This document shows, in pieces, positions 1-64,000 of a stretch of DNA of 64,000 bases. The notes beneath the pieces were generated by a model, which saw nothing but the letters and a program-made list of their open reading frames with translations, had not been told where the DNA came from and did no database searches. This DNA comes from Deinococcales bacterium. Lineage in GTDB: Bacteria > Deinococcota > Deinococci > Deinococcales > JAAFIG01. The stretch is taken from assembly GCA_031414595.1 (NCBI GenBank), contig JANNVX010000075.1, forward strand, positions 1 to 64,000, in the 5' to 3' direction. The translations under genes and the position numbers were made by a program. Positions within the stretch are counted from its first letter, which is position 1, and each line of letters begins with the position of its first letter.

Positions 1-135
1 CCATATCACTTGGCGACGAGTTTTTTCTTTGGCATCTTTGCACTGTTTGTAGTGTTTCTCGAGTTCTTCAGTCGTATGGTGGGCGGTTAGAGGTGTGCCT
101 AATCTTGACATTCCTTATTATCTACCTAAAGTTGG
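1..135 (-). mobile_element. Left end of an IS630-family insertion sequence; transposase N-terminus at 111..<1 runs off the window
   Basis: Minus-strand ATG at 111 gives MSRLGTPLTAHHTTEELEKHYKQCKDAKEKTRRQVIW, resembling the N-terminal HTH of IS630 transposases (H..EELE..Y....D..E..R.Q.IW). A TA dinucleotide (IS630 target) lies at 136-137, where the upstream GNAT breaks. Confidence 0.7.
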
Positions 136-587
136 TATAAGCGCGATTCGATCCGTTCCCAAACTTGCACAAAACCGTGTTTCTCGAGCAGATGCAAAGC
201 GGGCAGTTCGTAATCATTGCACATGGCTTGTAATTTATTGGCATTGCCCAGTTGCAATAAATGATTCTGGGCTGTTGTGTACAAAGCAGAGGCAATCCCT
301 TGATTTTGATATTGGGGCAGTATATCTATGCGAATAGAGTATTTTCCTGCTTCATAAAAAAAATCATCATGGGCTATGCGAACCATGCCAACCAACATTT
401 TTTGATTGTTCTCGAGGATTTGGGCTAAAAAGCGCTGCGAATGATGTTTTGGGTCTCGGTTGCGGTCATGGCGCATAAAATCTTCTACATCCATCTGCCA
501 ATCTTCGGTGCTGTTATGGATATTGGCAATGCTTGGGTAGTCTGTTGGGTATTCTGCACGGCGAATCTCGAATGATAATTTTTTCAT
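126..587 (-). pseudogene. GNAT N-acetyltransferase, probably C-terminally truncated by the IS
   Basis: Acetyl-CoA motif PQYQNQGIASALY and LEKHGF; ends at ESRL-YQL*, with the last codons derived from the IS end. Confidence 0.6.
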
Positions 588-740
588 GTGAAAAGTATCT
601 TACACGCCTCAGATTTTATCAATCCGCCTTTTGACGCATTGACCCATTTGGCGTTAAACTGATTTTACAAGGCAACGCTTGTCTAACGGACACGACCTGA
701 AAAAAAAGGGTTGTGTTCATTGTTTTTTTAAGGAGTTTTT

Positions 741-2582
741 ATGGATTGGACAAATTACTTGCATCACGACCACAGCCCGTTTTATCTTTCTAAGCCCGAA
801 GCTGAAGTCGGCGATTCGGTACAGGTTCGTTTACGAGTGCCATTAAACGCCCCGATTAAAAGAATTGATTTGATGACCTTGCGGGTCGGCGATTTTTTTC
901 GCCAAGAAATGAAAGCCTCTAGCCACACCGATAAAAATTGGTTGTACTTTGAAGCCGACATTGAACTTTTGTCACGGCGCAATCTCTATTTCTTTTGGGT
1001 GCATTCGCAAGACCAAAGTATTAAAGTCAGCGCCAGAGGGCTGCAACGTACCAACCCTGCGCTGCGTGACTGGTTTGTCTTTTTAGCCGAGCATCACCGT
1101 CCAGATTGGCTCGAGGACAGGGTTTTTTATCAGATTTTCCCAGACCGATTTTTTAATGGCGACCCAAGTAATAGCGTTAAAACCGCCGAGTACAACTACA
1201 TGGGGAAGCCCGTCCAAGCCATGCCGTGGGAGGCGCTGCCCGAAAAAGAATTTGGTCCTTTGCAACATTGGGGCGGCGACCTTGAAGGGATTCGCCAGAA
1301 ACTGCCGTACCTGACCGATTTAGGGGTCAATGGCTTGTATCTCAATCCGATTTTTACCTCCCCAAGCAATCACCGTTACGACACCCAAAATTATCTCGAG
1401 GTAGACCCGCACCTTGGTGGACAAGCTGCCTTCGATGCGCTCTTAAGCGATGCCAAAGCACAGGGTTTTAAGGTGATTTTAGACGGTGTTTTTAACCATA
1501 CGGGCGAACAAGCCTTAGAATTCAAAAAAGCCCTAGATAATAAGGTCGAAAAGCAAATGTTCACTTTTCGAGCAGATGGCACTTACGAAGCCTTCTTTGG
1601 GGTCAAAACCCTGCCTAAACTCGATTACGACAGCCACCAAACCTATGAACACTTTCTCGAGGGTCACAATGCACCTGTGCGCCACTGGATTCGGGCTGGG
1701 GCAGATGGCTGGCGTTTAGATGTCGCCCATATGATGGGTAAATCCGGCACAGACCGAGGCAACTTAGAAATTCATCGCCGACTTCGTAATGCGGCGCGGC
1801 TCGAGAATCCACAAGCCTGGATTTTTGGTGAACGCTTTTTGGATGCCGAAAGCTACCTCCAAGGCGCGTCCGACCCATATGACCACGACGGCGGCGGCGA
1901 AGACGGCGTGATGAACTATCAAGGCTTTGCCCTGCCGATTACCGATTGGTTAGGACGCAACGACCTTTTTGGCAATACCGTTAATCTCGAGACTCCAGAA
2001 CTGATTGCGGTTCTCGAGGAGAGTTACCGTGTGATTCCCACCCCGATGCGTTTCTCGCACTACAATCTGATTGGTTCGCACGATGTTCCACGAGCCTTAG
2101 AACGCCTAGGCGATATCGAAAAACTCAAAACTGCCTTTGCGCTATTGCTGGCATACCCCGGCGTACCCGGAATTTATTACGGCGATGAAATCGGCTTAAA
2201 AGGTGGCAACGACCCATTCTGCCGCGCTCCGTTCCCGTGGGACGAAAGCCAATGGAATATGGGATTACGCAGTTTTGTACAAAGCCTGATTCGGGCGCGT
2301 AAAAGTTCTAAAGCCCTGCAAGCTGGCGCACTGAAATTCTTAGGGCATCGGGGCGATGCTCTAGCCTTTGCCCGAACCTACACCCACGCCGATGGACGAG
2401 TCGAGAGTGCCTTAATTGGGGTCAACCGAGGCGTAGGCGAAGCCCTGAATTTTAACACTGCCTTGGTTGGTGTCTTTGAAGGCTCATGGACGGATGCAGT
2501 CACAGGCGAGGTTTTCCATGCCAGAGACGGGATTCTTAAAGCTACAGTTTTTCGCCCTCGAGTGCTGCTGCCAATGCTTTAA
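741..2582 (+). CDS. GH13 alpha-glycosidase (maltodextrin glucosidase/neopullulanase-like)
   Basis: FYQIFPDRF, GGDLEGI, DGVFNH, GWRLDVA, GSHD, YYGDE motifs; AAGGAG RBS. Confidence 0.92.
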   Translation: MDWTNYLHHDHSPFYLSKPEAEVGDSVQVRLRVPLNAPIKRIDLMTLRVGDFFRQEMKASSHTDKNWLYFEADIELLSRRNLYFFWVHSQDQSIKVSARGLQRTNPALRDWFVFLAEHHRPDWLEDRVFYQIFPDRFFNGDPSNSVKTAEYNYMGKPVQAMPWEALPEKEFGPLQHWGGDLEGIRQKLPYLTDLGVNGLYLNPIFTSPSNHRYDTQNYLEVDPHLGGQAAFDALLSDAKAQGFKVILDGVFNHTGEQALEFKKALDNKVEKQMFTFRADGTYEAFFGVKTLPKLDYDSHQTYEHFLEGHNAPVRHWIRAGADGWRLDVAHMMGKSGTDRGNLEIHRRLRNAARLENPQAWIFGERFLDAESYLQGASDPYDHDGGGEDGVMNYQGFALPITDWLGRNDLFGNTVNLETPELIAVLEESYRVIPTPMRFSHYNLIGSHDVPRALERLGDIEKLKTAFALLLAYPGVPGIYYGDEIGLKGGNDPFCRAPFPWDESQWNMGLRSFVQSLIRARKSSKALQAGALKFLGHRGDALAFARTYTHADGRVESALIGVNRGVGEALNFNTALVGVFEGSWTDAVTGEVFHARDGILKATVFRPRVLLPML

Positions 2583-4099
2583 GCCGTTGCCCAGCCAGTA
2601 ATCTGTTTTTTCTCGAGGTCAAAACGCACCCCAACTTTCACCACGGGTCTCGAGAAACTACTGGCATAACCAACGGCATCAATTTGCTTTAAGGCACTTT
2701 TGGCTGTGCCTTTAATCTTAAATTCAAAAATAATGCTGTGGGTTAGCGTCTCGAGTACGGTGTCTATTCGCCCATTCGCGGTTTGCACTTGGCTTTGGGT
2801 TCTGTATCCTGTGCCTATCAGCATGAGATGCACTAGCGAATGAATGTAATCTTCTTTGGCTGGAAAAATTTCGTAAGGTATTCCAGCTAAAACTCGGTTA
2901 ATCGTGGCAAAAAATACATCCCAATTCAACCGTGTGACCGCCCGTTGCAACTCGAGACTAAAGCCACCAATAAAACTGGGTACGCTATGGCTGTACTCGC
3001 CAAGTAAACTACTCGAGAAAGCCTGACGAACTTCTTCATTCGGATATGCCAGTGTGTAGCGCGTTCCGAGACCATCTGATTCAATCTTTTGAATCGTTAG
3101 ATACCCCGTTTGGAACATCAAGCCCAAGGGGTCAATGTGTTCGACATTAGTGGCAACCAGAGCAGAATCAGGCAATTCAAGATGCTCAAAAACAAAAGGG
3201 TTTATCTGAGCGGCGCGAATCAGTTCAAGTAGAAAAGTGGGTGTGCCAGTCTCGTACCAGTATGACCTAAAATTGGGTTGCTCGAGAAAGAGTAAAAACG
3301 AAAACGGACAGTAGACTTTCTGTACTGCATCCCATGAATACCCATTGTACCAATAGCGAATTAAATCCATAAAAACCTCGAGTTCAAGGTTTTTTTCAAG
3401 CGCAATTGCCCCCAGTCGGTCAGCAAAAGAAATTCTTATTTCGCTTTCAGTATAACCACAAGCCACTGCAAATTTTTTGTTTAAGCTGATGTCCTGCAAA
3501 TTATTGAGGTCAGAGAATAAGCTGAGCTTGCCAATTTTAGAAACGCCAGTCAGTAAAACCAAATGCAAGTATTCATCGAGCGGTTTAAGCACACCATAAA
3601 CACTTTTCAAGACCGCTTGATGCTTGTTGCGTTCGCTTGGCTCGAGTAAATAATCGGTGATTGGTTTATCGTACTCATCTATTAGCACCACCACACGTCC
3701 TTGAACAGACAGCAAACGAATCAGTTCTTCAAAAGCGGCTTTGGCTGTATTCTGCTCAAGTTGTATCCTGTACTCAGAGGCGGTTAAGCGAAAATCCTCG
3801 AGTAAAGAATCTTCCAAACTGCGCTCACGGTAATCAAGTTTAGAAAAGTCAAGTCGAATGATTGGGCGAGGCTTGAAATCAAAGTTATCTTCGAGCCAAA
3901 GACCCGCAAATAAGTCTTTGCGCCCCATAAACGCAGCCTTTAAGGTGGAAAGTAATAACGACTTCCCGAACCGACGCGGACGCGCTAAGAAAAATACTCC
4001 ACCCTGCATAAACTCTTGGAAATACATGGTTTTGTCCACGTAAACATAGTCACTTTCGCGGATTTTAGTAAAATCTTGAATGCCAATCGGGAGACGCAT
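2579..4099 (-). CDS. AAA-ATPase-like protein with C-terminal PD-(D/E)xK nuclease domain
   Basis: LPIGIQDF, YVDKT, RPRRFGKSL, IDEYDKP, YWYETGTP, GRID...IFEFK; start placed at MRLPIG. Confidence 0.88.
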   Translation of the reverse strand: MRLPIGIQDFTKIRESDYVYVDKTMYFQEFMQGGVFFLARPRRFGKSLLLSTLKAAFMGRKDLFAGLWLEDNFDFKPRPIIRLDFSKLDYRERSLEDSLLEDFRLTASEYRIQLEQNTAKAAFEELIRLLSVQGRVVVLIDEYDKPITDYLLEPSERNKHQAVLKSVYGVLKPLDEYLHLVLLTGVSKIGKLSLFSDLNNLQDISLNKKFAVACGYTESEIRISFADRLGAIALEKNLELEVFMDLIRYWYNGYSWDAVQKVYCPFSFLLFLEQPNFRSYWYETGTPTFLLELIRAAQINPFVFEHLELPDSALVATNVEHIDPLGLMFQTGYLTIQKIESDGLGTRYTLAYPNEEVRQAFSSSLLGEYSHSVPSFIGGFSLELQRAVTRLNWDVFFATINRVLAGIPYEIFPAKEDYIHSLVHLMLIGTGYRTQSQVQTANGRIDTVLETLTHSIIFEFKIKGTAKSALKQIDAVGYASSFSRPVVKVGVRFDLEKKQITGWATA

Positions 4100-4159
4100 G
4101 AGGTATTTTACCTGATGACGGTGAGCCTCTTCCCTCGAGCGCATCTTTATGGTTTAAGA

Positions 4160-9199: not shown

Positions 9200-9367
9200 G
9201 CTCTTAGCATAGGCGTAAGTATGGCATCAAAAAAGGGTCAAGCGTTGCCCTTTAGGCATTTTCTTAAGGTTTAAGTTTAACTCAAGAAGTAAGCTCTCAG
9301 GCACTCCCCATAGGTATCAGGCTAATCACAAAAGCCTTCCAGTACACAAAGAATCACCGTCAGTTAG

Positions 9368-9550
9368 CCCCTCTCCCGACTCGCAAGCTCGCCACCCTCC
9401 CCCAAGCGAAGCGTAGTTTGGGGGAGGGTTTGGAAAGGGGTTTTGACCTGCGTTTCGTCCCCAATCTGTAACAACAAGACAAACCGAAAAACCCTCTCCC
9501 GCGCTTTTTGGCGGGATGAGGGTAACGAGCCTAAGCGAGTTGGGTGAGGG
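9368..9550. repeat. Two inverted copies of a ~60-bp BoxC-like structured intergenic element
   Basis: CCCTCTCCCGACTCGCAAGCTCGCCACCCTCCCCC..GGGGGAGGG (+) versus CCCTCACCCAACTCGCTTAGGCTCGTTACCCTCATCCCGC..GCGGGAGAGGG (-). Confidence 0.65.
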
Positions 9551-9631
9551 TTGAACCGCGTTGATGCCCAATCATTCTCGAGACTTGGATTTTTATCGTG
9601 CGGCACTACCAATTATTTGAAAATCCAAACA

Positions 9632-15295: not shown

Positions 15296-15439
15296 TTTGA
15301 GCTTCTAGTTATTAGCTTCTAGCTGTTGACCAAGTTTCTCGAGAATTCTTAGTTTTTTTTGGTAGAGCCTCCAAAAGAATGCCATTTCATCATTGTCACA
15401 GGACAGACACGGGGGTGTCTTGACCATAAACGCGCACCT

Positions 15440-15514
15440 GACGGGCATGGTCGCCTGTCCCTACAGTCATGGAATAAAAATGCGTGAGGTAGGGGCGAAT
15501 CCCCGTGTTCGCCC
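15440..15514. repeat. Inverted pair of GTAG-type REP-like palindromes
   Basis: GTAGGGACAGGCGACCATGCCCGTC (-, 15464-15440) and GTAGGGGCGAATCCCCGTGTTCGCCC (+, 15489-15514). Confidence 0.65.
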
Positions 15515-15602
15515 TGTTTTTTCATTCACGCATTTGATGAAAAATCCTAAAAATCAAGACCTTCTGGAGGCTTTAGCAGTTGCAAGCCTCGGCTGTGCTT
15601 TG

Positions 15603-15731: not shown

Positions 15732-17654
15732 ATGAATAAAACGTTTTATGTGACCACCCCGATTTATTATGTCAACGACGTGCCTCACCTTGGTCATGCT
15801 TACGCAACGTTGGTTGCCGATACCTTGGCTCGGTATCACCGTTTAGCGGGTTATGACACCTATTTTTTGACGGGTACAGACGAACACGGCGAAAAAATCT
15901 GGAAAGTGGTGCAAGCCCTCGGGCGCGAGCCTCAAGAGTACGTGGATGAAATTGCCGAAACTGGTTTTAAGGCACTTTGGCAACGTTGGGGCTTAAGCAA
16001 CGATGATTTTATTCGCACCACCCAAACCCGCCATATCAAGTATGTCCAAAGCATCTTGCAGCGCTTATATGAGGCTGGCGACATTTACTTTGCCGAGTAC
16101 GAAGGTTTATACAGCATTGGCTCTGAGCGTTATGTGACCGAAAAAGAATTGGTCGAGGGAGCAGATGGTGTTCGTCGCCTACCCGGAGACCGTGACCCAC
16201 CAGAATTGCGCCGTGAAGCCAATTATTTTTTTAAGCTCGAGAAATACCGCCCATGGTTAATTGGATACCTGAACGAGCATCCAAATTTAATCGAACCTGT
16301 AAGTTACCGCAACGAAGTCATAGAAATGCTGCGTGAGCCAATTGGGGATTTAAGCATCTCGAGACCAGCTGGGCGTTTACCGTGGGGAATTCCGATTCCG
16401 TGGGATGTCGGCGATGTTTGTTATGTCTGGTTTGATGCGCTGCTGAATTACGTTTCGGCACTCGGCGGCGAAGGCGACCCGAAATTTGAAACTTACTGGC
16501 GCAGTGCTTGGCATTTGGTTGGTAAGGATATTCTGAAAACCCATTCGGTCTTTTGGCTGCCAATGCTTAAGGCTGCGGGCTTACCCTTGTACGAAAAACT
16601 GGTGGTACACGCCCATATTCTTGGCTTTGACGGGCGCAAAATGGGCAAAAGCCTAGGCAACGCGGTAGACCCTCTTCTGATGGAAGAAAAATACGGTATT
16701 GATGCCCTGCGCTACGCGCTGCTTCGTGAAACAACTTTCCAAGCCGACAGTGCTTTTGGCGAGAAAATTTTAGTCAACCGCTTAAATTCTGACCTTGCCA
16801 ACGACCTTGGGAATCTGCTCTCGAGGGTGCTGAGTATGCTCGAGAAATTCCATGATGGCATTATTCCTGTGCCAGACCAACTCGGCGCAAGGGAAGAAGG
16901 TATTAAAGCGGCTGCCTTAAAACTCCCAGACAGCACCTTGGAAGAAGTACGCGGCTTGCGGTTTCACTTGGCAATCGAAAAAATCATGGAATTTGTGCGT
17001 GACTTAAACCGTTATGTGGCAGAAACCAAACCTTGGGAACTGGCTAAGCTCGAAGATAAAACCCGTCTAAATACTGTCTTGTACACCCTTGTTGAAGGTA
17101 TCCGTGTGGCTTCGGTGTTACTCGAGCCAGTCATCCCCAATCAAGCCAAAGAAATCCGTAAACAACTTGGACTCGAGCCAAGCTATGTTCTCGAGCCAGC
17201 TTGGGGACTGACCAAAAGCGGCAGCCGAATTGCCCCAGCCAGTGTCTTATTCCCCAAAGTCGAATTAAAGGAAACCCCAATGACCCCAGAAATCCCAGTC
17301 ACCCCCGTTCTCGAGACCAAAATAGAAGAATTTATTGGTATCGAAGATTTTGCGCGCATTCAATTGCGTGTGGCTGAAGTTCTCGAGTGCGAAAAAGTCC
17401 CCAAAGCCGATAAGTTACTTAAACTAACTGTGGCATTAGGGGAAGAACGCCGCACCATTTTATCGGGCATTGCCGAGTATTACACGCCTGAAGAAATGAT
17501 TGGAAAACAAGTCGTGGTTGTGGCAAACCTTGCCCCACGCAAAATGCGCGGCATCGAAAGCCAAGGGATGATTTTGGCTGCCACTGACGAAAATGGCAAA
17601 GTGGTCATTGTTACTCCAGAGCGCCTTGTACCAAGTGGTGTGGAGGTGCGTTAA
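15732..17654 (+). CDS. metG: Methionine-tRNA ligase with C-terminal tRNA-binding domain
   Basis: TTPIYYVND, HLGH, GTDEHG, YVWFDAL, KMGKS, SQGMILA. Confidence 0.97.
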   Translation: MNKTFYVTTPIYYVNDVPHLGHAYATLVADTLARYHRLAGYDTYFLTGTDEHGEKIWKVVQALGREPQEYVDEIAETGFKALWQRWGLSNDDFIRTTQTRHIKYVQSILQRLYEAGDIYFAEYEGLYSIGSERYVTEKELVEGADGVRRLPGDRDPPELRREANYFFKLEKYRPWLIGYLNEHPNLIEPVSYRNEVIEMLREPIGDLSISRPAGRLPWGIPIPWDVGDVCYVWFDALLNYVSALGGEGDPKFETYWRSAWHLVGKDILKTHSVFWLPMLKAAGLPLYEKLVVHAHILGFDGRKMGKSLGNAVDPLLMEEKYGIDALRYALLRETTFQADSAFGEKILVNRLNSDLANDLGNLLSRVLSMLEKFHDGIIPVPDQLGAREEGIKAAALKLPDSTLEEVRGLRFHLAIEKIMEFVRDLNRYVAETKPWELAKLEDKTRLNTVLYTLVEGIRVASVLLEPVIPNQAKEIRKQLGLEPSYVLEPAWGLTKSGSRIAPASVLFPKVELKETPMTPEIPVTPVLETKIEEFIGIEDFARIQLRVAEVLECEKVPKADKLLKLTVALGEERRTILSGIAEYYTPEEMIGKQVVVVANLAPRKMRGIESQGMILAATDENGKVVIVTPERLVPSGVEVR

Positions 17655-37581: not shown

Positions 37582-37689
37582 AGGGCTTTGTTTTTTACGG
37601 CGCAAATTTCTTTGATTTGGCGTTTTTCCTTACTCGCTAAAGATGCACCCCCCGAGTTTTAGAGCCTCGAACATGATAAACTATCCGTT

Positions 37690-37932
37690 ATGACCAAAGA
37701 ACTCGTGGCTTACCTAGCCAGTAAAGTAGTGGATAACGCTTCTGCCGTGCGCGTCGAAGCTGTCGGCGATAATTACATCATTCATTGTGCGACAGGCGAA
37801 GAAGGACGGGTGATTGGCAGACAAGGACGGGTCATCCAAGCGATTCGTACCATTGCCAGGGCGGCGGCTGGACCTCGAGAACGGGTTCAAGTGGATGTGG
37901 CTGGCGCATCCAGTAAGCCAGAAGATGAATGA
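37690..37932 (+). CDS. khpA: KH-domain RNA-binding protein
   Basis: GRVIGRQGRVIQAIRT; lies upstream of rimM. Confidence 0.9.
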   Translation: MTKELVAYLASKVVDNASAVRVEAVGDNYIIHCATGEEGRVIGRQGRVIQAIRTIARAAAGPRERVQVDVAGASSKPEDE

Positions 37933-38440: not shown

Positions 38441-38460
38441 AATTGGGCTAGACTAAACCC

Positions 38461-38700
38461 ATGATTCAGGTATCAGAAAACTTAGCAGCTAAGCTCGAAG
38501 CTGCGGCACTCGAGCAAGGGGTGAGCAAAGAACGTATTCTCGAGGATGCGCTGAATGCCTTTTTGCGTCAGCCTGTGCGCCGAAATGCCAAAGGATTTAT
38601 TGTTCCGAGTTTTGTCGGTGCGTATGCCAGTGATGAACCCGGTTGGATTGATCGTCATGAAGAACTTCTTTGGAATGAGGAACATGGCAATCATCGCTGA
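38461..38700 (+). CDS. CopG/RHH-type antitoxin
   Basis: Small RHH pattern plus PSFVG..EELLW tail, overlapping a PIN gene. Confidence 0.75.
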   Translation: MIQVSENLAAKLEAAALEQGVSKERILEDALNAFLRQPVRRNAKGFIVPSFVGAYASDEPGWIDRHEELLWNEEHGNHR

Positions 38701-39088
38701 TACAGGTGGGCTTCTTGTCTTACTTGATAAAAAAGACCCTCGACATCAGGCTGCTTTTGATTGTTTAGATGAAAAGTTAATTGTGCCATCGTTAATTCTT
38801 CCTGAAGTTGATTATCTTGCCTCGAGACGTTTGGCGCAAGGCGCGATGAATACATTGCTTTCGAGTTTATTTATTGGTGAGTTTGACTATTATGAAGTTG
38901 ATTTATTTGATTTACAACGCGCTCATGAAATCATGAAGCAATACGCCGATGCTCGAGTTGGTTTAGTGGATGCAGCCGTGGTTGCTGTGGCTGAAAGACT
39001 ACGAATCAATCGAATTCTGACCATTGACCATCGGCATTTTTCGATGTTTAAGCCACGAAATCTGAATTGTCTCGAGTTATTGCCATGA
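38684..39088 (+). CDS. PIN-domain (VapC) toxin
   Basis: [32 protein letters not shown] overlap with trmD. Confidence 0.9.
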
Positions 39089-39849
39089 AATTTAGTATCC
39101 TGACCCTCTTCCCAGCCCTGCTCGAGCCTTGGACAACAGAAGCCATTCTTGGTAAAGCCATAGAAAAAGGTTTACTCGAGGTGGATATTCTGGATTTTCG
39201 TGGTGTCACCACCGACAAGCACCGAACGGTGGATGACACACCGTATGGCGGCGGGGCGGGGATGGTGCTGCGGGTGGATGTGATGGCTAAGGCACTCGAG
39301 CCTGTAGAAGCCGATGAGATTATTTTGCTTTCGCCAGCCGGAGTGCCTTTTGACCAAAAAATGGCAGAGGAACTATCCACCAAAAAACATATTGCTATTT
39401 TGTGTGGGCGTTACGAGGGCTTTGACTCGAGAATTGAAAGTTTGGTGACAAGAGAAGTCAGCTTGGGCGATTTTGTGATGATGGGCGGTGAAGCAGCCGC
39501 CGTTTGTCTACTCGAGGCAGTGGCGCGGTTATTGCCGAATGTGCTTGGCGACGCGGCTTCGCATATCGAAGACAGTTTCTCGAGTGGAATCCTTGATTAC
39601 CCAGAGTACACCCGCCCACTCGAGTGGAATGGTTTGACCGTGCCAGAGATTTTGCGTGGTGGCAACCATGCGGCAATTGCCCGTTGGCGGCGGCTCGAGG
39701 CACTGCGCCGTACCTTGGCGCGTCGTCCAGACCTGATTCCAAATGGTCTGCGTGACACCGATGCAGTCTTGCTGCTCGAGCTTGGGGTCTTGGAAGAACA
39801 AATTCTGGCTTGGGGCTTGGTATTACCAAAAAAGAAACGAAAGCGTTAG
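39085..39849 (+). CDS. trmD: tRNA (guanine37-N1)-methyltransferase
   Basis: [30 protein letters not shown]. Confidence 0.97.
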
Positions 39850-39921
39850 TCACGAAGTATTGGCTCTTTCTAAGTGCTATTTTTCAATTTTGGTCTATGC
39901 TGAATGGGCAAAGGAGAGCAG

Positions 39922-41136: not shown

Positions 41137-41252
41137 CTGACTTTGGTACAGCCAAGTAATCTCGTCACGATTCTATTAAAATTTTGCTGCACAATATAGC
41201 CATGAGACTACCGCATCTGTCCGTCATGAGACTACCGCATCTGTCGGTCATG
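41120..41252 (+). repeat. Two adjacent short tandem duplications (23-bp and 24-bp period)
   Basis: TTGG(C/T)ACAGCCAAGTAA x2; CATGAGACTACCGCATCTGTC(C/G)GT x2. Confidence 0.85.
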
Positions 41253-42473
41253 AAATTTCTTTTTGTGGCTTTATTGTTTTTTTCTTCAAGCGCTTTTGCC
41301 AGTCCAGCCCAAGATTTACTCAACCAAGCCGCCTACTTTATTGCCGTGCGTTACAACGGGTTTTCCAGTGCTGACACCAGTAATTTTGCCACGCAGTTTC
41401 AACCAGAACTGGATTTGGCGTGTAAGGAGATGCTCGAGACCTGCCCCTACTCGAGTGCCGTACCAATTATTCAAAAGATGATGACCGCATTAAACGATGG
41501 TCATTCGTATTACCTCAGTCCAGAGCAGTATGAAGAACAATTAGCCCAAGCCCGTGGTTTGGGTGGCTCGAGTTTACGGCTCGGAATTATCACAGCCGAT
41601 GCCAAGGATGGTTTTGAGCGGATTGTCGCCGATGTCTGGGCGGGTTCGGCAGCCGATAAAGCAGGCTTAAAACGCGGCGACCGAATTATTGGCTTTAACA
41701 ATCAAAGCGCCAGTGTTCTAGCCGAGAATTTTAGGACACTGCTGGCTAAAGAAGTCAGTACCGGCAACGAAGTGCGTTTGAATCTTCGTCGGGCTGGGCT
41801 ACCCATAGAATTAAAAGTGCGTGGCTCGAGTCTGCGCTCACCGCTTCCAAGCTATAAAACCATCAATGCCAAAGTTGGTTATTTGCGTCTGCCAATTTTT
41901 GATGTCAGTGGTGCAGTCGCAAGTACAGTCCATTCGATTCTGAAAACCCAAAAGAATTTAGCCCCCAATCTGATTATAGATGTGCGCGATAACCCCGGTG
42001 GGCTTGCCACCGAAACAATCGGGGCAGTTGGGGCGTTTGTTGAAAAAAGCGGTTTTATTCTCGAGACCAAAGACGGCAGCAACGAGCAAAGGGTAGAAAA
42101 AGGCGCGGTCTTGATTGCGGGTTTGCGTTTGAATATTGTGCCGCAGCCTTTTATGTACAAGGGTAAAGTCTTGGTATTGGTTAATAAAAATTCGTATTCA
42201 GGAGCAGAATACTTCGCCCAATTACTGCAAGACCAAAAACGAGTCACGGTGATTGGCGAAACCACTGGTGGACTTGGCAATACAGCTACCATTCCATTTG
42301 CTTTGCAGAATAACAGTGCTATTTTTATTACGGTTTCAAAGAGTTTGCGTTTAAGCGGTGGGTACTTACCGGCGGCTGTCACCCCAGATGTGCTTGTGCC
42401 AGATGACCTCGAGTTACAAAGTGTGACTGGCAAAGATGCGGTCTTGGAAAAAGCCCTAGAGTTTTTGAAATAA
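41250..42473 (+). CDS. S41 (CtpA-like) peptidase with PDZ domain
   Basis: DGHS, AGLKRGDRI, DVRDNPGG, SYSGAE, GETTGG; signal peptide. Confidence 0.88.
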   Translation: MKFLFVALLFFSSSAFASPAQDLLNQAAYFIAVRYNGFSSADTSNFATQFQPELDLACKEMLETCPYSSAVPIIQKMMTALNDGHSYYLSPEQYEEQLAQARGLGGSSLRLGIITADAKDGFERIVADVWAGSAADKAGLKRGDRIIGFNNQSASVLAENFRTLLAKEVSTGNEVRLNLRRAGLPIELKVRGSSLRSPLPSYKTINAKVGYLRLPIFDVSGAVASTVHSILKTQKNLAPNLIIDVRDNPGGLATETIGAVGAFVEKSGFILETKDGSNEQRVEKGAVLIAGLRLNIVPQPFMYKGKVLVLVNKNSYSGAEYFAQLLQDQKRVTVIGETTGGLGNTATIPFALQNNSAIFITVSKSLRLSGGYLPAAVTPDVLVPDDLELQSVTGKDAVLEKALEFLK

Positions 42474-43116: not shown

Positions 43117-43533
43117 CTATAATTTCCCACGCGAGAATTTTGCATCCAAAGCTGCGATTATCACCACTTCAAGCTGAGCCGAAAAAGCTGTTGCATCACG
43201 CCGCTTACCATCTTTTAAGTCCAACACAACCAGCACTGTACTATCACCCTGAAATGCCAACAGCACTATTGTATTTTGCTTCTCGAGTTGAAGACTGGTA
43301 ATTTCATGCACAACCAAACCAGTATCTTGAATAACCACAATATATGCGCCTTTTAAGCTCGGGTTAAAACCTTGTACTGCCTCGAGTGCCACGGCTTGGG
43401 TCTCGAGGCGATTGCCTTTCCAAACAGGAATATCACTTGAAGTAAAGTCAATATCATTCAAGTAATCATCGGTAGTGGTAGCTGGAGCGCAAGCGGCAAG
43501 CCAAAGCAAGAGTAAAATAGCAAAACGAATCAT
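43117..43533 (-). CDS. Hypothetical lipoprotein
   Basis: LAAC lipobox; AAGGAG RBS before MIRF. Confidence 0.7.
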   Translation of the reverse strand: MIRFAILLLLWLAACAPATTTDDYLNDIDFTSSDIPVWKGNRLETQAVALEAVQGFNPSLKGAYIVVIQDTGLVVHEITSLQLEKQNTIVLLAFQGDSTVLVVLDLKDGKRRDATAFSAQLEVVIIAALDAKFSRGKL

Positions 43534-43633
43534 GGGTTTCTCCTTTTCGCGAGGTATCAAAAGCGGCATACATCGCAAGAAATCTCAGGGCATTTTCAAG
43601 CAAATTGGGCGAAGTCTTCAAGAAAGAGATACA

Positions 43634-44911
43634 TCAAGTAACTGTAATTGAAATTATTTGAGATCGTAATGTGTCTTTTTTATCTTTTGCGGAAATCGTG
43701 TATTGCGTAGCCAGCATGGGTTTCGTTGGTTTCCCAGAAATGATACCTGTTTCAGGATCAAAAGATAATCCATCTGATTTTTCTGGTATCATCGTAAACA
43801 CAATTGGTAGAACCAAGTCATTGAGGTTTGAGAAAGTAGGTTGATTTACAGCCACTTCAGACGCGAAAGTAAAATTAGGGATAATTGCAGTTTTTGTGGT
43901 CACAGCATCTGTGATTTTGCGTGTTAAATATGCTCCCTGCCCCAAACCAAAAAGTGCTAGGACTGTTCCATTGACATCTGGCAAAGCGGTTTGACTGATA
44001 AATGGAATGATCTCGAGATGTGCCAAAAATGCAAGAAAATATGTAAAAGCCGCCACCACAGTGACAGCAATCATTTGAAAATCGGTTAAATCAAAAGCAC
44101 CATCATCGCTTGTCCATAATTGATCCCAATCGGCTTTATCCGAATTGGGAATGGCTATATTTGGATTGCGCTCAACTTGTGCTTCTTTGGCAACTCGCGC
44201 TCCAACAAAAACAATCATGCTTAAACCAGAAAGCACCAGTAAATTAGTTGGAATATCGATTCCAAGAGCATACCGAAAATGCGTATACATCACTCTAAAA
44301 ATCAGTACGGTCAGCAGTGTTGTTAGGAGCATAAAAAACCAGATGGCAATTTGGGTTTGTGAATTGCTCATTCTGCCGTCTTTACCAGTACAGAGTTGTC
44401 TAAAACCAGACTTAAATAAACCATGAAGCAAAAGAATAAGTGAAACCATCACTAAAATTGTGACTAAAACAGGAGACCAAATCCGACTTGGCTTTATTTG
44501 GCGTATTGCCAGACTTTTAAGGGTTTTTCCGTCCAGTGCTAACTGTGCATAGACTTCATCACCAATGCTGATTCCACTGCTTAAAGCCTTTGCACCTTCA
44601 AAGCTAATGCGTGGCTCTGTGATGTCTTTTGGACTATCCAATTCAGACAGGGTACAGCTGCGACGAATAGTAATTCTATCTGTGTTTTCTAAAGGGACTT
44701 CAGTCACAACACCACGTAAAAAAAGTGATTTACCTGTGGGACCATACGCACCAAGTTCGCTGTATTGCACTTCTTTTGGGTCAACACAGGTTTTTAATTC
44801 TGAACCAAAAAAACCTTCGCCACCAATCGCGTTGGCATTAAAGCGAGCCACAACACCTGCTCCCACAAAAAAAACTGCACTCAAGAAAATATATAACCAA
44901 GTTATTTTCAT
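43634..44911 (-). CDS. Multi-pass membrane protein with C-terminal putative Ig domain
   Basis: N-terminal signal/TM, 5-6 TMs with an internal repeat (SQTQ..W / TDFQM; IP..LLVLSGLS / LP..VLALFGLG), GLSFDPETGIISGKPT. Confidence 0.7.
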   Translation of the reverse strand: MKITWLYIFLSAVFFVGAGVVARFNANAIGGEGFFGSELKTCVDPKEVQYSELGAYGPTGKSLFLRGVVTEVPLENTDRITIRRSCTLSELDSPKDITEPRISFEGAKALSSGISIGDEVYAQLALDGKTLKSLAIRQIKPSRIWSPVLVTILVMVSLILLLHGLFKSGFRQLCTGKDGRMSNSQTQIAIWFFMLLTTLLTVLIFRVMYTHFRYALGIDIPTNLLVLSGLSMIVFVGARVAKEAQVERNPNIAIPNSDKADWDQLWTSDDGAFDLTDFQMIAVTVVAAFTYFLAFLAHLEIIPFISQTALPDVNGTVLALFGLGQGAYLTRKITDAVTTKTAIIPNFTFASEVAVNQPTFSNLNDLVLPIVFTMIPEKSDGLSFDPETGIISGKPTKPMLATQYTISAKDKKDTLRSQIISITVT

Positions 44912-44914
44912 ACA

Positions 44915-45565
44915 TTACTCCTTTGAAGCACCAAAACCACTATTACGTGACCAAAAAGTACGCAGCTGGCTTTCTGTACCATTAAATTTGTCTCTATCAC
45001 AACGTCCGATACCAGTAACTTCATGTGGAGGTTGCCCGACTGCCCCATCTGTGTATTGCCATAAAGTCCAAGTTGTCCAGATTTTTGGAATGAGGGGAGC
45101 TTGGCTATATTGTGCAATCCATAGCCAACATTTGGATAGTTCTGTTTGTTTGGGACTGTTAATTCCAGCTTTTGTCAGAGCTTCTTTGATGGTATGTCCC
45201 GAGTACAAACCGGGGTAACGTCCTGTCAGTGCGTGAATATGATGGACAAAGTGTTCGGCTTCTTCGAGTGTCATATCATGACCCTGCGGATTGCCTTCAA
45301 AGTCCAATACCAAGAGAGTATCAGCACCAGCGATCCGAAGAAAATGCTCGGCTTGTTCAATCGCATTTCCTGCCACGCCGAAGTGATATGCACCAACCAA
45401 TAAATCAGCTTGTAAGGCTTGTCGTCGTCTCGAAAGATAGGTCGGATCAGTATAAATTGTACCTTGGGTGGCTTTTTGGATAACACCCAGAATCCCCGCT
45501 TGCTTTACCTTAGTAAAACTCGAGACTTTATTGTGATGTGAAATGTCTATGACGGCGTTAATCAT
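44915..45565 (-). CDS. GH25 muramidase (lysozyme), no signal peptide
   Basis: IDISHHN, KATQG, GAYHF, LDFE, LWIAQY, WQYT, DRD. Confidence 0.92.
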   Translation of the reverse strand: MINAVIDISHHNKVSSFTKVKQAGILGVIQKATQGTIYTDPTYLSRRRQALQADLLVGAYHFGVAGNAIEQAEHFLRIAGADTLLVLDFEGNPQGHDMTLEEAEHFVHHIHALTGRYPGLYSGHTIKEALTKAGINSPKQTELSKCWLWIAQYSQAPLIPKIWTTWTLWQYTDGAVGQPPHEVTGIGRCDRDKFNGTESQLRTFWSRNSGFGASKE

Positions 45566-45580
45566 TTTTCCTCCTGCAAT

Positions 45581-47407
45581 TCAACTATTCCATTCGTTGT
45601 ACAGATTCCTGAAAGCAATCAAAACACGTCCTTTGACAGAACTACCCCAACTAAAAGGTAAGTTCATTGCTTCTACGTCACCATCAGCAATATCTAATAC
45701 ATCTTGAACAGTGGCACGTTGGGCAATCCCGTTCTCTTCCCAATCCAATTTCACTTCAACGGTTGCTCTCATTGGATATGTGGGAAATGGGTTAGAGCCA
45801 TGGGCGGCTACAAATTTCTCGAGCTTGATGCTAAGGCGGGCGGAATACTTGTTTCCCCAAACAAAGCGCTTAGGCTTAAAGTCTTGTTGGGTTATACCAG
45901 AGTCAAAGAAAATAGTTTCACTGGCATAATCAACTGTACCAAGGCTAGGGTTTGTCGCTGTGCTATCGGAAGCCGAATAACTCATGTGTATTTCTACTCT
46001 GCGGTGGTCTAAGTCTTTGGGCGGGTTTAGTGAAAAAAATAATTTGTTTGTTTGGTTGGCAATGAGTAATTTCTCTTGCTGGTCAGCATATTTAAGGTGG
46101 TTAATAGTTGCTTGAGCATCTATGATGTATGCCCCAACAGGTACATTTTCGATTTCAAAGTCTCCATTAGTATCAGTGAAAGCACTCATACCCTCAAAGA
46201 CCCGAACCATAGCGTTTGCAACAGGTGAATATATGCCGCCGATAAAGCGTTTGACTGTTCCTTGTATCGTTGTTGTTCCCACGAATGGTGTCCAGCGAGA
46301 TATTTTTTGCAAAACAACCATTTGTGGTCGGTGTTGCACAGGCTCAAAATGCCCATAACAACCACCTTGGTCAGGTGAAAACCATTCGAGTATGTTATTT
46401 GGTGAAACAGCGACACCCATACCGGGGTTTTTCCATTTTGTTGTAATGTCTGCCACTGAATCATTGGCAAAAGCATTGACAATCTGATTGGCAACATACT
46501 CATCAATTTGCAGTAGCTTTGCAATAAATGGCACAGCTTTAGCTACTTCAAATTTCAGGTATTCATGTAGCCAATTTGCTGCTTTTGCTCGGTTTGCAAG
46601 GTTGTAATTGGCTAAGCCATTTTTAGTTGTACCAAGTTTTACGCCAACATCATTTGCCATATGCCAAATAAATGATGAACAGACTGTGGGTAATGAATCT
46701 GATGCCCAACCAAGATTTCTACCTGCTTTTGACAAATTGGCTTTTGTATAGCCATATAAACGATAATGTGCTTTGGAAACTTCATTTGGTCTTGCGCCAT
46801 ACTGCAAAGCCAAGTCTGCAACTTTATGAAGTGTTAAGCGAACAGTTTTGTCTTGCTGTGGTGGTGGTTTTACCACAAGTGGAGGAGTGATAATAATTTT
46901 TTCACCGTTTGTTGTTGCCACCGCGATTGCCATGTGGTATTGCGTGACACCTGCAATGGTGTAATCCTTCTTGCCATCATTAAAGGGTTCACCGTGAATT
47001 GCCTCATACATATTTTGGCGCACTGTACCAGGCCACATGTATTTTAAGTCAAAATCAGGAAGTCTTTGTGTAGAAGTGTCAAGCTGGTCTGTGAGTCGTT
47101 CAACACTGGCGGTACTGTGAACAATTTCCGAAAAGTCTTTGGTAACTAAGCATGAATGTCCATATGTTTGTGGTGGCAGTAATTGACGGAGTAACTGTCC
47201 AATGACATCCATTGCGCCGGGCATTAGTAAAACATCGCCCTTGCGAGCATTAAGAATACACTCTTTCAAAAGAACTTGTTTTAGAGGTTCATCAAGAGTA
47301 ATCTGAGGCGAGAGTTTGGCTTGTTTGGCAAGCATCCACTCTTCGCTGGTAATTGTTTCACGGTCACAGACTTCACCTTTTGCTACATAGTTTGAAATGT
47401 TTAACAT
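45581..47407 (-). CDS. Permuted papain-like (YiiX/YebB-type NlpC/P60) enzyme with carboxypeptidase-regulatory-like and C-terminal beta domains
   Basis: KGDVLL..YGHSCL followed later by VCSSFIW and VSP..I (His before Cys); GTV..PVANAMV..TDTNGDFEIENVPVGAY; GAGG RBS before MLNIS. Confidence 0.65.
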   Translation of the reverse strand: MLNISNYVAKGEVCDRETITSEEWMLAKQAKLSPQITLDEPLKQVLLKECILNARKGDVLLMPGAMDVIGQLLRQLLPPQTYGHSCLVTKDFSEIVHSTASVERLTDQLDTSTQRLPDFDLKYMWPGTVRQNMYEAIHGEPFNDGKKDYTIAGVTQYHMAIAVATTNGEKIIITPPLVVKPPPQQDKTVRLTLHKVADLALQYGARPNEVSKAHYRLYGYTKANLSKAGRNLGWASDSLPTVCSSFIWHMANDVGVKLGTTKNGLANYNLANRAKAANWLHEYLKFEVAKAVPFIAKLLQIDEYVANQIVNAFANDSVADITTKWKNPGMGVAVSPNNILEWFSPDQGGCYGHFEPVQHRPQMVVLQKISRWTPFVGTTTIQGTVKRFIGGIYSPVANAMVRVFEGMSAFTDTNGDFEIENVPVGAYIIDAQATINHLKYADQQEKLLIANQTNKLFFSLNPPKDLDHRRVEIHMSYSASDSTATNPSLGTVDYASETIFFDSGITQQDFKPKRFVWGNKYSARLSIKLEKFVAAHGSNPFPTYPMRATVEVKLDWEENGIAQRATVQDVLDIADGDVEAMNLPFSWGSSVKGRVLIAFRNLYNEWNS

Positions 47408-47559
47408 TTTTACCTCGTATTGACAGAATAAATACGCGAATAAGTATCTAACTAACTGATGTGTGTTCTTCATCTGTAAAAGGAATAATATGTGAGTTGA
47501 TTCAATTATAAACCCCCCAAATTAACTCGAGTCAGACGCACCCAAGCTCGAGTGGTTAC

Positions 47560-60986: not shown

Positions 60987-62411
60987 CTAAAGTGGAATTC
61001 CAATAACCACCGATTGGCTTTTATCTTGGTGTTCAACCACAAAGACCAGTCGTCCAGTATCGTCGGTGTGCATCGCCGTGTAACCAATGCCAATAAAATC
61101 TCCGACAGGGCTGTTGTGGTTGGCAAGGCGGTCTTTGTTGCGTAAAATGGTACGGTTTTGCCGTCCATTGCTGACCACCAATTCAATGCCTGCGCCCGTG
61201 CTAACCAAGAAAAAACTGATCCCGTCGGTTGCCAAATGCGGTGTGGCAATGGCTTTGACGATTTGCCCTGTGGGGCTGCGATCCCCTGTTTTTAACAGCA
61301 CTTGATTGTTCAAAACCAGAGCATGGTCGGCATTGTTAATCACCACATGGGCAACTTGATTATTTGCACCACAGCGCGGTGCAAAATAGGTCAGACCACT
61401 AACTCGAGCGTTGCTGGTGCGTAAACCACTGCTGATTGAACTGGTTTCGACTCGCAAATTGTTGGGCGTTCCAGTGCGAGCGCTGGCTGTGCCAATGGTG
61501 TTGAGGTTGCCACGCAGTACAGCCGTTTGCGATGCCCCTTGGACAAAGGCTGCACTCATTTCGGTGGCTGGGGTGAGCGTGGTTTGCATCACCAGTTGTC
61601 CGTTGTCGTGCAAGCAAATTAAGCCAAATTGTGAAATCAGCGCAGCGCTGCTGTTGGCAGCCAAAGGCGTGCCACTCGAGACGACCAAACTGGCTTCTGT
61701 GCCGTTGTTACCAGACAATTGAAAAACCCCTTGGCGCACTTCCTTAAAGCCTTGTTTGGTGGTGTGGTAATAGTTTGCCACAAAGACCAAATTTTTGCCG
61801 TGCAAACTGAGATCACCAAACATTCCTGCAAATTCGTGTCCGTCGTTGTTGGTCTGGTGTTCGTGCAGCACTCGAGTTAAACCGTTGGCGGTGCTTTTGT
61901 AAATGGCTTGCATTCGGATTGGGGTTGTACCACCATCAAAATTACCTTGGTCGTCGGTGGTTTGGCGTTTGGTTTCGGTGTCAACCATCACCACCACGGC
62001 TAATTCACCTTGGGAATTGATGTCATGGGCTGTAATTTCGACGACTTTGCGACCATCAAGAATTTCTTCGGTGCGAAGAATCCGTGTTTCTTTGGTCACT
62101 TGAGGGGTAGCCCCAGAAAACTCGAGTTGCAGGGTGTACAGACCAATTTGTTTTTGCTGGTTGACTGCGCCGTAAACCACCCGCCCGTTATTGTCTATGG
62201 CAGCATCTAAGCGCAGATTCACCATTTGGTTGCCGTCCGGCAGGGCATGAGCGCTATTTTTAAGCACAAAGAATTGGTAGCCGTTAGGCAGCACACCATC
62301 TGTGCCAATTGGCGGCGTGAGATTGTTGTTGGTTGTTCCACAAGCACTTAAGAACGCACCTGAGAAGGTTAAACCTGTAGCTTTAAGAAAATTGCGGCGA
62401 TCTATGTTCAT
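60987..62411 (-). CDS. Tat lipoprotein, probable beta-propeller (NxxGxx(A/V)-type repeats)
   Basis: DRRNFLK..LSAC; IDNNGRVVY, INSQGELAV, HDNGQLVM, DDTGRLVF. Confidence 0.7.
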   Translation of the reverse strand: MNIDRRNFLKATGLTFSGAFLSACGTTNNNLTPPIGTDGVLPNGYQFFVLKNSAHALPDGNQMVNLRLDAAIDNNGRVVYGAVNQQKQIGLYTLQLEFSGATPQVTKETRILRTEEILDGRKVVEITAHDINSQGELAVVVMVDTETKRQTTDDQGNFDGGTTPIRMQAIYKSTANGLTRVLHEHQTNNDGHEFAGMFGDLSLHGKNLVFVANYYHTTKQGFKEVRQGVFQLSGNNGTEASLVVSSGTPLAANSSAALISQFGLICLHDNGQLVMQTTLTPATEMSAAFVQGASQTAVLRGNLNTIGTASARTGTPNNLRVETSSISSGLRTSNARVSGLTYFAPRCGANNQVAHVVINNADHALVLNNQVLLKTGDRSPTGQIVKAIATPHLATDGISFFLVSTGAGIELVVSNGRQNRTILRNKDRLANHNSPVGDFIGIGYTAMHTDDTGRLVFVVEHQDKSQSVVIGIPL

Positions 62412-62422
62412 CCTAACCTCCT

Positions 62423-64000
62423 CTAATTTGTTCCCCAAGCTGTACCGTCTGGCACAGTGGTTGCGACCTTAAAAGTGCTGACCCGTTCGCCCGAAGGTTG
62501 TTCTTCTTCGCGTTCAATCAGTAAATTCCAACCCGCCAGTAATGCCACATTGTATTTCAGGGTGCGGTTGACCTGACCAGAACAGGTTTGTGTACCATTT
62601 ACGGTGGTGGCTGTTTCGAGATACCACCAACTGATTTTCTCAAGCGCTCCATCAGAATCTTCGTGGGTGATTTCAACTGGGGTTCTAAAGGTGCTTTGAT
62701 TCCAAACTTCGATTTGTAAAGCACCGTATTTGCTGGCTGGGCTAACCGTGATTGTGCCAGTGCAAACGGCTCGAGTCAGACTGAGTGGACTTAAAAGACT
62801 CGAGGAGACAGGGCTGGGCAGTGGTGTACTGACTTCGCCATTTGCACCTAATGTAAGCTGAGCAATTTGCTGATTGGCAACTTTTAAGCGCAAACTGTTC
62901 TGGGCAAACGCACTGCCAACCGAACCACTCAAGGCACTCGAGGTGCTACCCGTATCGGGAATGCCTGGTTCTTTATCGGCTTCAAAGTACCACTGCGAGC
63001 CTGTCGGTAACGTACCTGATGTATGCAGCACCACTTCGTTATTATTTTTTAGCACCACTTGGTCAATCATCAAATTCCAACCTTGGATAAAATTGATGTT
63101 GTATTCATGGATTTCGTCTTGTCCGTCGCCACTTGGGCAGTTTTCCGAACCCGTGACTTGCACGGCACTGACAGCATAGACCCAACTGACCAGAAAACCA
63201 CGTCCACCAACGGCGATCAAACCAATTGGCACCCCACTTCGGGTCGGCTCGAGAACAGCCATTGCACCTGTTGGAGTAGCCGGAGTCACAACTGCACTCG
63301 CTCCACACCCTTGGGTCAGGTCAAGCGGCTCGAGTAATGTGTTATCGAGCGTGGCTGGCAAGCTAAAGTTCAATTCACCAGTGGCGCTTAGAGTTGAAGC
63401 TCCAAGGCTTTTGCCTTTATTTGACTCGAGTTTCAAATCGGCAGCCGTGGTGTCCGTCCAACCACCCAATTTGCCACGCATCCGCGTTGGGCTGCTGCCT
63501 GCGTCCAAACCACCAAACGGACCTGGGGCAATACCCACACCTGTATCTTCGAGTTGCACAAACCATTTTTGCCCTGTGGGGATAGTAATGAGGTTATTAA
63601 AGGTGCTGATTTGCAGAACGTTATCCTCGAGTTGCTGCACCAAATTCCAACCAGCTTTTAGGTTTAGATTGTACTGGGTCGAGAAAACCTCATCGCCGCT
63701 ACCGCAACCTAGGACACCCGAAATCGTGACTGCACTCGAAGCGTACCACCAACCAACTCTGGTCGAGTACGAACCCAAGAATGCCTTACCGACAATGTTG
63801 TTGCCTCGGTACAAGACTGTGTTCAGTTTGCCAATTAAAACACTGGGGTTATTGGCTATGACTGTTCCAGTACAACCCGCTTGGTTGAGGCTCGAGATTA
63901 CCCCGAGTAAGGCTGGATTGATTGTGGCTGGAATCGCCACGTTAAAACTGCCTGTTGCGCTTGTGGTTGCGACTGGTGTTGCACCAATCACCACGGCAGA
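62423..64000 (-). CDS. Extracellular protein with at least three ~180-aa Cys-containing repeats (5' end outside the window)
   Basis: Each repeat has G....LP..L..C..W.Y..V.G...C..YN..L..GWNL. Confidence 0.75.
   Translation of the reverse strand, partial: SAVVIGATPVATTSATGSFNVAIPATINPALLGVISSLNQAGCTGTVIANNPSVLIGKLNTVLYRGNNIVGKAFLGSYSTRVGWWYASSAVTISGVLGCGSGDEVFSTQYNLNLKAGWNLVQQLEDNVLQISTFNNLITIPTGQKWFVQLEDTGVGIAPGPFGGLDAGSSPTRMRGKLGGWTDTTAADLKLESNKGKSLGASTLSATGELNFSLPATLDNTLLEPLDLTQGCGASAVVTPATPTGAMAVLEPTRSGVPIGLIAVGGRGFLVSWVYAVSAVQVTGSENCPSGDGQDEIHEYNINFIQGWNLMIDQVVLKNNNEVVLHTSGTLPTGSQWYFEADKEPGIPDTGSTSSALSGSVGSAFAQNSLRLKVANQQIAQLTLGANGEVSTPLPSPVSSSLLSPLSLTRAVCTGTITVSPASKYGALQIEVWNQSTFRTPVEITHEDSDGALEKISWWYLETATTVNGTQTCSGQVNRTLKYNVALLAGWNLLIEREEEQPSGERVSTFKVATTVPDGTAWGTN

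Follow-up and report, generated by a model that had tools for sequence, protein, structure and literature searches.

Why is one short palindrome, CTCGAG, repeated hundreds of times along a stretch of bacterial DNA, within genes as well as between them? The question was raised by the window analysed here, a 64,000-bp stretch of contig C75 from G000, the metagenome-assembled genome (MAG) of an uncultured member of the Deinococcales (4.49 Mb in 120 contigs of up to 205 kb, 47.2% GC, completeness 94%). An initial annotation of the window had proposed that CTCGAG is a highly iterated palindrome (HIP), that a process linked to methylation, repair or recombination creates or maintains it, and that its density marks the residence time of DNA in the genome. 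The data presented below robustly support CTCGAG as a DNA-level signal of the HIP type, present at about 5-7 copies per kb and, judging from genome comparisons, actively maintained throughout an uncultured Deinococcales family (GTDB family f1).

The window contained 305 copies of CTCGAG, about 4.8 per kb, located in genes and spacers (2-18 per 2-kb bin), versus a mean of 7.36 (standard deviation 2.98, maximum 22) in 100 dinucleotide-preserving shuffles. Genome-wide, 23,235 sites were found (5.18 per kb, with a mean inter-site gap of 191 bp). CTCGAG was the top hexamer of G000 with 46,470 both-strand counts; the next-ranked hexamers overlapped it, and the first unrelated word, CAAAAA, reached 11,129. 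These counts confirmed that the strong enrichment described in the initial annotation is real and beyond chance. Its local counts for the first 3 kb and for the 765-bp trmD gene were also exact, the identity of trmD being backed by its Pfam match (Table 1).

Markov models gave observed/expected ratios of 23.9 at order 0, 43.6 at order 1, 18.1 at order 2, 3.8 at order 3 and 1.16 at order 4. The annotation had stated that its claim would fall if the excess disappeared under a fourth-order null, and formally the last ratio is such an outcome. Yet the test is invalid here: a fourth-order model conditions on CTCGA and TCGAG and therefore already contains the signal, so the value of 1.16 is no refutation. 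In G000, 69% of TCGA lay inside CTCGAG and 89.8% of CTCGA was followed by G. A null that shuffles synonymous codons, described next, left a 10.1-fold excess.

An excess of this kind could be a passive by-product or an artefact, arising from codon or dipeptide usage, mutational bias, a sink created by palindrome avoidance, a dispersed repeat, or sequencing and assembly error. The low order-4 ratio agrees with such an origin, as does the avoidance of almost all other 6-bp palindromes. We compared coding and non-coding DNA using our own calls based on open reading frames (3,867 genes, 87% of the genome). CTCGAG density was 5.18 per kb in coding and 5.15 per kb in intergenic DNA, and the composition-based observed/expected ratios were 23.3 and 28.7, respectively. 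Sites were found in every codon frame (12,173 read as CTC GAG, 3,901 and 4,179 in the other two frames), with 2,976 between genes. Shuffling synonymous codons within genes, which keeps the proteins and the codon usage of each gene, produced 1,963-2,080 sites in five runs (mean 2,010), versus 20,297 observed. The second most enriched 6-bp palindrome in G000 had an observed/expected ratio of only 2.15. The density of CTCGAG was flat at about 5.2 per kb from -400 to +400 bp around gene starts and ends, with the exception of the first 25 bp of genes (3.6 per kb) and of gene ends (6-7 per kb). The argument of the annotation that amino-acid usage does not explain a motif present in all three frames and between genes was therefore upheld. 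Collectively, these data showed that it is the complete hexamer that is under pressure, whatever the coding context, and that this pressure overrides codon choice.

This pressure was also visible in proteins. Outside the motif, CTC and GAG are disfavoured codons in G000 (7.9% and 19.8% usage, respectively), and CTCGAG nevertheless wrote 12,192 of the 20,380 Leu-Glu pairs (60%), versus 1.6% predicted from Leu and Glu codon usage elsewhere. The Leu-Glu dipeptide itself was 2.22-fold in excess, with Glu-Leu at 0.98. In methionyl-tRNA synthetase (MetRS), an alignment with 13 orthologs revealed that at six of the nine sites most or all aligned Deinococcus orthologs encode other residues (ME, IQ, LG, LT, QP, VA). 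The excess of Leu-Glu and the residue differences in MetRS therefore indicated that the motif has altered protein sequences. The 68 tRNA genes (5,310 bp) contained 7 CTCGAG, versus 27.5 at genome density, so strong functional constraint holds the motif back. Five of the seven CTCGAG-containing tRNA genes lay close together on contig C56, positions 144-2945, in a tight group for Ser, Ser, Cys, Thr and Glu. Three conserved rRNA primer motifs had no match in this MAG, and rRNA genes were therefore not part of the comparison.

Comparison of related genomes indicated that CTCGAG is actively maintained, in agreement with the initial annotation. At 74.5% nucleotide identity, 30 of 41 CTCGAG sites were kept, versus 26% of all hexamers. 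Orthologous DNA of seven same-genus genomes was projected onto positions 1-40000 of the window. Conservation of the motif exceeded that of same-class hexamers in all three frames, except for frame 2 in the comparisons with G003 and G002, which are the most distant of the seven; intergenic sites were few (0-9 per comparison) and pointed in the same direction as coding sites. Compared with G007, for instance, CTCGAG was conserved at 47/69, 12/23 and 18/24 sites in frames 1 to 3 and at 4/4 intergenic sites, with controls at 0.26-0.47. Synonymous third positions, which the annotation had singled out as a place to look, gave the same result: relative to G003, CTC was kept in 44 of 47 codons inside the motif versus 21 of 37 elsewhere, and GAG in 45 of 50 versus 32 of 56. 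In most three-genome comparisons, loss from one genome of a motif present in the other two was 2-4 times rarer than change of a generic hexamer shared in the same way. Among the 40 listed of 1,844 population variants, none fell in a motif position, versus 1.3 expected, a number too small to be informative.

The way in which sites differ between genomes was examined at the level of the hexamer. None of 26 six-base indels carried CTCGAG; new sites therefore arise by substitution, and a spread of the motif by 6-bp insertion was ruled out. Among motif sites that differed between two genomes, three or more of the six positions were changed in 12 of 53 cases in close pairs (6.5% in controls) and in 47% of cases in distant pairs (19% in controls), these being overlapping pairs in which events are not independent. 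Flank-matched controls differed at a mean of 1.36 positions in close pairs and 1.84 in distant pairs. Multi-position differences are consistent with an all-or-nothing pressure that favours only the complete hexamer, in a genome otherwise disfavouring CTC and GAG codons; they may also represent imported alleles. Examples were found at window positions 411, 7093, 12815, 14703, 20692 and 25499, where close relatives differ at 3-4 hexamer positions (CTCGAG versus TTAGAA or TTTGAT, for example). The 36-bp flanks were almost identical at 7093, 14703 and 25499, and differed as well at 411, 12815 and 20692.

The bases flanking CTCGAG in G000 were near random, indicating that there is no longer repeat around the hexamer. 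Among the 16 flank combinations, the sole depleted one was CCTCGAGG, with 356 both-strand counts versus about 2,600 expected (about 7-fold), which hints at the avoidance of an 8-bp site containing the motif. Apart from this combination, the near-random flanks led us to reject a dispersed repeat, such as a repetitive extragenic palindromic sequence (REP) or a miniature inverted-repeat transposable element (MITE), as the carrier of CTCGAG. Gaps between sites were under-represented below 25 bp and at 400-1000 bp and over-represented at 50-300 bp, and their distribution had a tail above 1.5 kb. No two sites were separated by a gap of exactly 6, which would form GAGCTC, a word with 6 copies in G000. 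One-off variants of the motif were not depleted in the case of the three transitions (observed/expected 1.07-1.23, with TTCGAG at 1.23 and CTTGAG at 1.07), and the six transversion variants had ratios of 0.17-0.69, the median of all hexamers being 0.83.

The annotation had suggested that related Deinococcota might share the motif. MetRS loci placed G000 among uncultured Deinococcales MAGs, and the corresponding loci of relatives with 73-97% protein identity and 45-62% GC had 5-8.6 CTCGAG per kb; those of Deinococcus had 0-4 sites in about 22 kb. Whole-genome counts extended this result, giving 4.3-6.8 CTCGAG per kb in every one of the 19 genomes of family f1, which comprise five genera and include G000; GAGCTC, the reversed word, had 0-568 copies per genome in this family. 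The other four families of the order ranged from 0.03 to 2.9 per kb, and both low-GC and high-GC Deinococcaceae avoid CTCGAG, with 27 sites in 2.4 Mb in the low-GC genome G045. One further lineage, G041, reached 7.0 per kb. Its nearest neighbour on the MetRS tree, G042 (2.3 Mb; support 100/99), had 0.30 per kb, approximately the composition expectation. Sharing thus comprised the whole of f1 plus one lineage. The main motif-bearing clade had 100/100 support on the MetRS tree, and this single-gene tree requires two state changes, which could be one gain and a loss, two gains, or gene transfer. A search for viral contigs dense in CTCGAG gave at least 80 long loci, mostly contigs of 63-70% GC in which GAGCTC was abundant as well, consistent with a codon-usage effect; none of these loci could be assigned to f1.

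Sequencing or assembly error, which the annotation had listed as another ground for rejection, was ruled out by the same density in MAGs of several independent projects and in a complete chromosome assembled as a single 5.1-Mb contig (OZ252252.1). Together with the equal density in genes and spacers, the 10-fold excess over the synonymous shuffle, the next palindrome at only 2.15, the random flanks, the lack of motif-bearing six-base indels and the conservation at synonymous sites, this agreement between independent assemblies leaves a passive or artefactual origin extremely improbable, and we consider such explanations excluded.

A first active mechanism is the methylation-linked repair of Elhai's HIP model, in which a CTCGAG methyltransferase would mark the sites and methyl-directed mismatch or very-short-patch repair would restore or create them, or in which the sites would serve as strand-discrimination marks. 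At 5.2 per kb, CTCGAG is near the density of a random 4-mer such as GATC in Escherichia coli, and GATC itself is depleted in G000, to an observed/expected ratio of 0.14. About 25 DNA methyltransferase genes, representing all classes, are present in G000. The available text of PMC4390886 (Elhai) reports that each alternate cyanobacterial HIP has a cognate methyltransferase, and CTCGAG is a known methylated motif elsewhere: in the publications as far as they were accessible, methylated CTCGAG is described for hot-spring MAGs and for Halorubrum. The word is also reported as enriched in honey-bee intergenic DNA.

Other short palindromes of G000 were strongly avoided, nearly all of them. GGCC, for example, had 152 copies versus 13,951 expected, and about 30 of the 64 six-base palindromes had observed/expected ratios below 0.1 (GGGCCC 0 copies, TGCGCA 2, CGATCG 3, GAGCTC 6). 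This avoidance and the methyltransferase genes, which are sporadic among relatives, suggest a heavy and variable restriction pressure.

We searched for a methyltransferase or nuclease common to motif-bearing genomes. Searches for candidates covered 18 f1 genomes (MAGs 57-94% complete) unless fewer are named; the specificity of a methyltransferase cannot be read from its sequence, and unrelated enzymes could share a specificity. Vsr (PF03852) had no match in G000. The XhoI-family nuclease (PF04555) was found in 0/5 genomes, a weak negative, as the model matched no control genome either. A TaqI_C domain, a class that we take to include M.TaqI and M.PaeR7I, was found in 5/18 genomes, and the Thermus thermophilus positive control was matched. 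Three candidates were rejected as conserved factors: the TaqI_C-type methylases L112 (4/18 genomes; in G016 part of a 1403-amino-acid open frame) and L114 (2/18), and L132, a protein of 424 amino acids with a weak methylase signature (6/18). A PDB search indicated that L112 resembles CamA and M.BseCI and gave weak matches only for L132, neither result indicating specificity. No m5C methylase was seen in motif-bearing G010 and no N6_N4 methylase in motif-bearing G013 (a single 5.1-Mb contig), and D12-class matches were only 25-37% identical between genera. Across the m5C, N6_N4, D12 and N6_Mtase families, no methyltransferase ortholog group (at least 35% identity over at least 60% of the length) spanned G000, G006, G010, G011, G012 and G013. 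A conserved CTCGAG methyltransferase or restriction enzyme therefore does not appear to be involved, and the link to methylation and repair drawn in the annotation, together with the methyltransferase that it led us to look for, was not borne out. One-off variants that are not depleted also argue against repair towards the motif. We consider methylation-linked repair an unlikely explanation.

A multi-copy family of genes with AAA-ATPase_like and PDDEXK_9 domains is represented in the window by a gene at 2579-4144 on the minus strand, and has 6 matches in G000, 14 in G001 and 13 in G007. Its only occurrences in the order were in f1 (9/18 genomes, with 0/22 in other families). It was not found in G006, G010 and G013, and was rejected as a reader of the motif.

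A second mechanism is structural. Following the work of Xu, Lawrence and Durand on HIP1, CTCGAG could be bound by an abundant protein, specific to the family, that compacts or organises the chromosome. The even density, independent of genes and strand, the conservation of sites in both genes and spacers, the scarcity of sites less than 25 bp apart and the excess at 50-300 bp are all consistent with a role in nucleoid architecture, for which HIP1 provides a precedent in the available text of PMC5861425. For HIP1, Xu et al. 2018 describe a distribution that is periodic at 10-90 kb; the spacing analysis of CTCGAG covered short ranges. However, no candidate protein was found, and architecture by itself leaves the tolerance of motif-less foreign DNA unexplained. 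We rate this explanation as improbable too, to about the same degree as methylation-linked repair.

The reading that we favour, by analogy with other systems, is that CTCGAG marks self DNA. The hexamer would be read by a protein, probably a symmetric dimer, that thereby recognises DNA of its own family in the course of uptake or homologous recombination; the motif would then be maintained by selection or by an uptake or recombination bias, a mode of maintenance known from the uptake sequences of Neisseria and Haemophilus and now proposed for HIP1 too. We put this forward as a tentative possibility because the motif is shared family-wide and scarce in foreign DNA, because cultured members of the order are naturally transformable, and because of the current view of HIP1, whose link to transformation is described in the accessible parts of two reports (PMC13756078; bioRxiv 10.1101/2024.09.10.611283).

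Several observations weigh against a self-DNA mark. ComEC was present in motif-bearing G000, G013 and G041, but also in motif-less G042 and in the Deinococcus radiodurans control, and is therefore non-discriminating; no receptor or reader protein was found among the candidates searched. Known uptake sequences occur at about 1 per kb, several-fold less densely than CTCGAG at 5-7 per kb, and a 6-bp palindrome carries little information. The spacing of sites departs only slightly from random towards evenness, and the dispersion of counts in 5-kb windows exceeds the Poisson expectation (standard deviation 6.4 versus 5.1). On the two youngest branches, no excess of gains was seen at conserved one-off sites (0/20 and 0/21), but only about 0.14 was expected on each, and this result carries little weight in either direction. 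As far as the available texts go, the effect of HIP1 on transformation is reportedly methylation-dependent (PMC13756078; bioRxiv 10.1101/2024.09.10.611283), and no shared methyltransferase was found here; Xu et al. favoured a role of HIP1 in nucleoid structure (PMC5861425).

Somewhat more doubtful is a broader version of the self-DNA proposal, in which a family-specific protein system would read CTCGAG without a dedicated methyltransferase and would tell own from foreign DNA by motif density, during uptake or recombination or in protection from nucleases. If this version is true, the HIP phenomenon arose a second time in f1, independently and without methylation. The remaining probability goes to a mechanism not yet conceived.

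The claim that the motif serves as a marker of residence time was supported by DNA in which it is rare. G000 contained 43 site-free stretches of at least 1.5 kb (82 kb in total), with a mean GC of 40.4% versus 47% for the genome. The largest motif-poor block (contig C46, about 27500-41600; locus L381) had 4-6 sites per 5 kb and a GC of 33-38%. It encodes Wzy, a sugar transferase, glycosyltransferases, a flippase, epimerases and a DegT aminotransferase, and is a surface-polysaccharide gene cluster. In the window, the depletion noted in the annotation at about 43.6-47.5 kb was reproduced, with sites only at 44012, 45519 and 45818 between 43402 and 47526. This stretch includes the window's two longest runs without a site (1708 and 1507 bp). 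Its minus-strand genes encode GH25 muramidase, He_PIG and CarboxypepD_reg-like domains, and it was probably acquired more recently. Among 24 methyltransferase open frames examined, most had about 4-9 CTCGAG per kb, near the genome average, and six had fewer than 3 per kb. In practice, motif density flags recently acquired DNA, and may aid binning and the assignment of phages or plasmids to f1.

Table 1 Coordinates of the window features considered in the analysis of CTCGAG
Feature	Position	Strand	Observation
Whole window	1..64000		305 CTCGAG, in genes and spacers
Window start	1..3000		14 CTCGAG sites
Methionyl-tRNA synthetase (MetRS) gene	15732..17654	+	Assigned by Pfam; 9 sites, 7 in the Leu-Glu frame
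trmD (tRNA m1G37 methyltransferase), 765 bp	39085..39849	+	PF01746, E 1.9e-61; 9 sites
Motif-poor stretch	43403..47525		3 sites in 4.1 kb, GC 41.4%

The window also contains repeated DNA. At least 17 other G000 contigs carried a copy of its positions 1-140, with 99-100% identity, at or close to a contig end; this segment is probably the border of a repeated element at which the assembly breaks. Two dispersed repeats, at 15356-15590 (about 220 bp) and 9304-9614 (about 300 bp), had many copies with 75-94% identity in G000 and in same-genus genomes, the former without an internal CTCGAG. Neither repeat had an Rfam match or long inverted repeats, and the search of the window gave only 4 tRNAs and one 12-nt hairpin.

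The family offers a comparative approach, with five genera spanning 45-62% GC and motif-free close relatives, and the pair formed by motif-rich G041 and its motif-free sister G042 is a natural contrast for tracing the gene responsible; all known motif-bearing members are uncultured. Phylogenetic profiling of gene families has been applied to HIP1 (PMC13756078). The approximately 11,000 excess Leu-Glu pairs illustrate how a DNA-level signal can override both codon choice and protein sequence. Our literature search, which covered articles without their supplements and so does not prove absence of publication, found no report of CTCGAG as a highly iterated palindrome or as over-represented in Deinococcota.

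Among known systems, the DNA uptake sequence (DUS) of Neisseria and the uptake signal sequence (USS) of Pasteurellaceae are 9-12 nt long, non-palindromic and present at about 1 per kb, with a known receptor in Neisseria. Like CTCGAG, they are family-wide words that occur in all frames of coding DNA, alter peptide content and are scarce in foreign DNA, and they can be maintained by uptake bias and recombination. In contrast, CTCGAG is shorter, palindromic and denser. Very-short-patch repair by Dcm/Vsr enriches CCWGG in E. coli, modestly, with T-containing one-off words depleted. It resembles the present case in that a methylase target becomes over-represented through biased repair, and differs from it in that the CTCGAG genome has no Vsr match and one-off transitions at or above expectation. 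Chi sites of RecBCD/AddAB are likewise over-represented short words marking self DNA for the recombination machinery, although they are asymmetric, strand-skewed and only few-fold enriched.

The closest likeness is to HIP1 (GCGATCGC) and the alternate HIPs, which, in the available text of PMC4390886 and PMC5861425, are extremely over-represented short palindromes (15-300-fold for HIP1, 24-44-fold for CTCGAG). CTCGAG is not HIP1 proper, as the HIP1 word GCGATCGC has the core CGATCG, which occurs only three times in the 4.49 Mb of G000. According to the accessible part of PMC4390886, HIP1 is an 8-bp word found at 300-2,700 per Mb in cyanobacteria, versus 6 bp and 5,200 per Mb in Deinococcota for CTCGAG, and Elhai reports a cognate methyltransferase for every HIP, unlike CTCGAG, for which no conserved one was found. 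HIP1 and CTCGAG are alike in occurring in genes and spacers, in being lineage-wide and positionally conserved beyond background, and in having an unexplained function. CTCGAG combines the features of the HIP class: an excess of at least an order of magnitude, presence in all frames and in non-coding DNA, conservation beyond background (the criterion of Xu et al. 2018) and a lineage-wide distribution. HIP1 has been unexplained for about thirty years and known only from cyanobacteria; CTCGAG provides a second, independent and denser case in another phylum.

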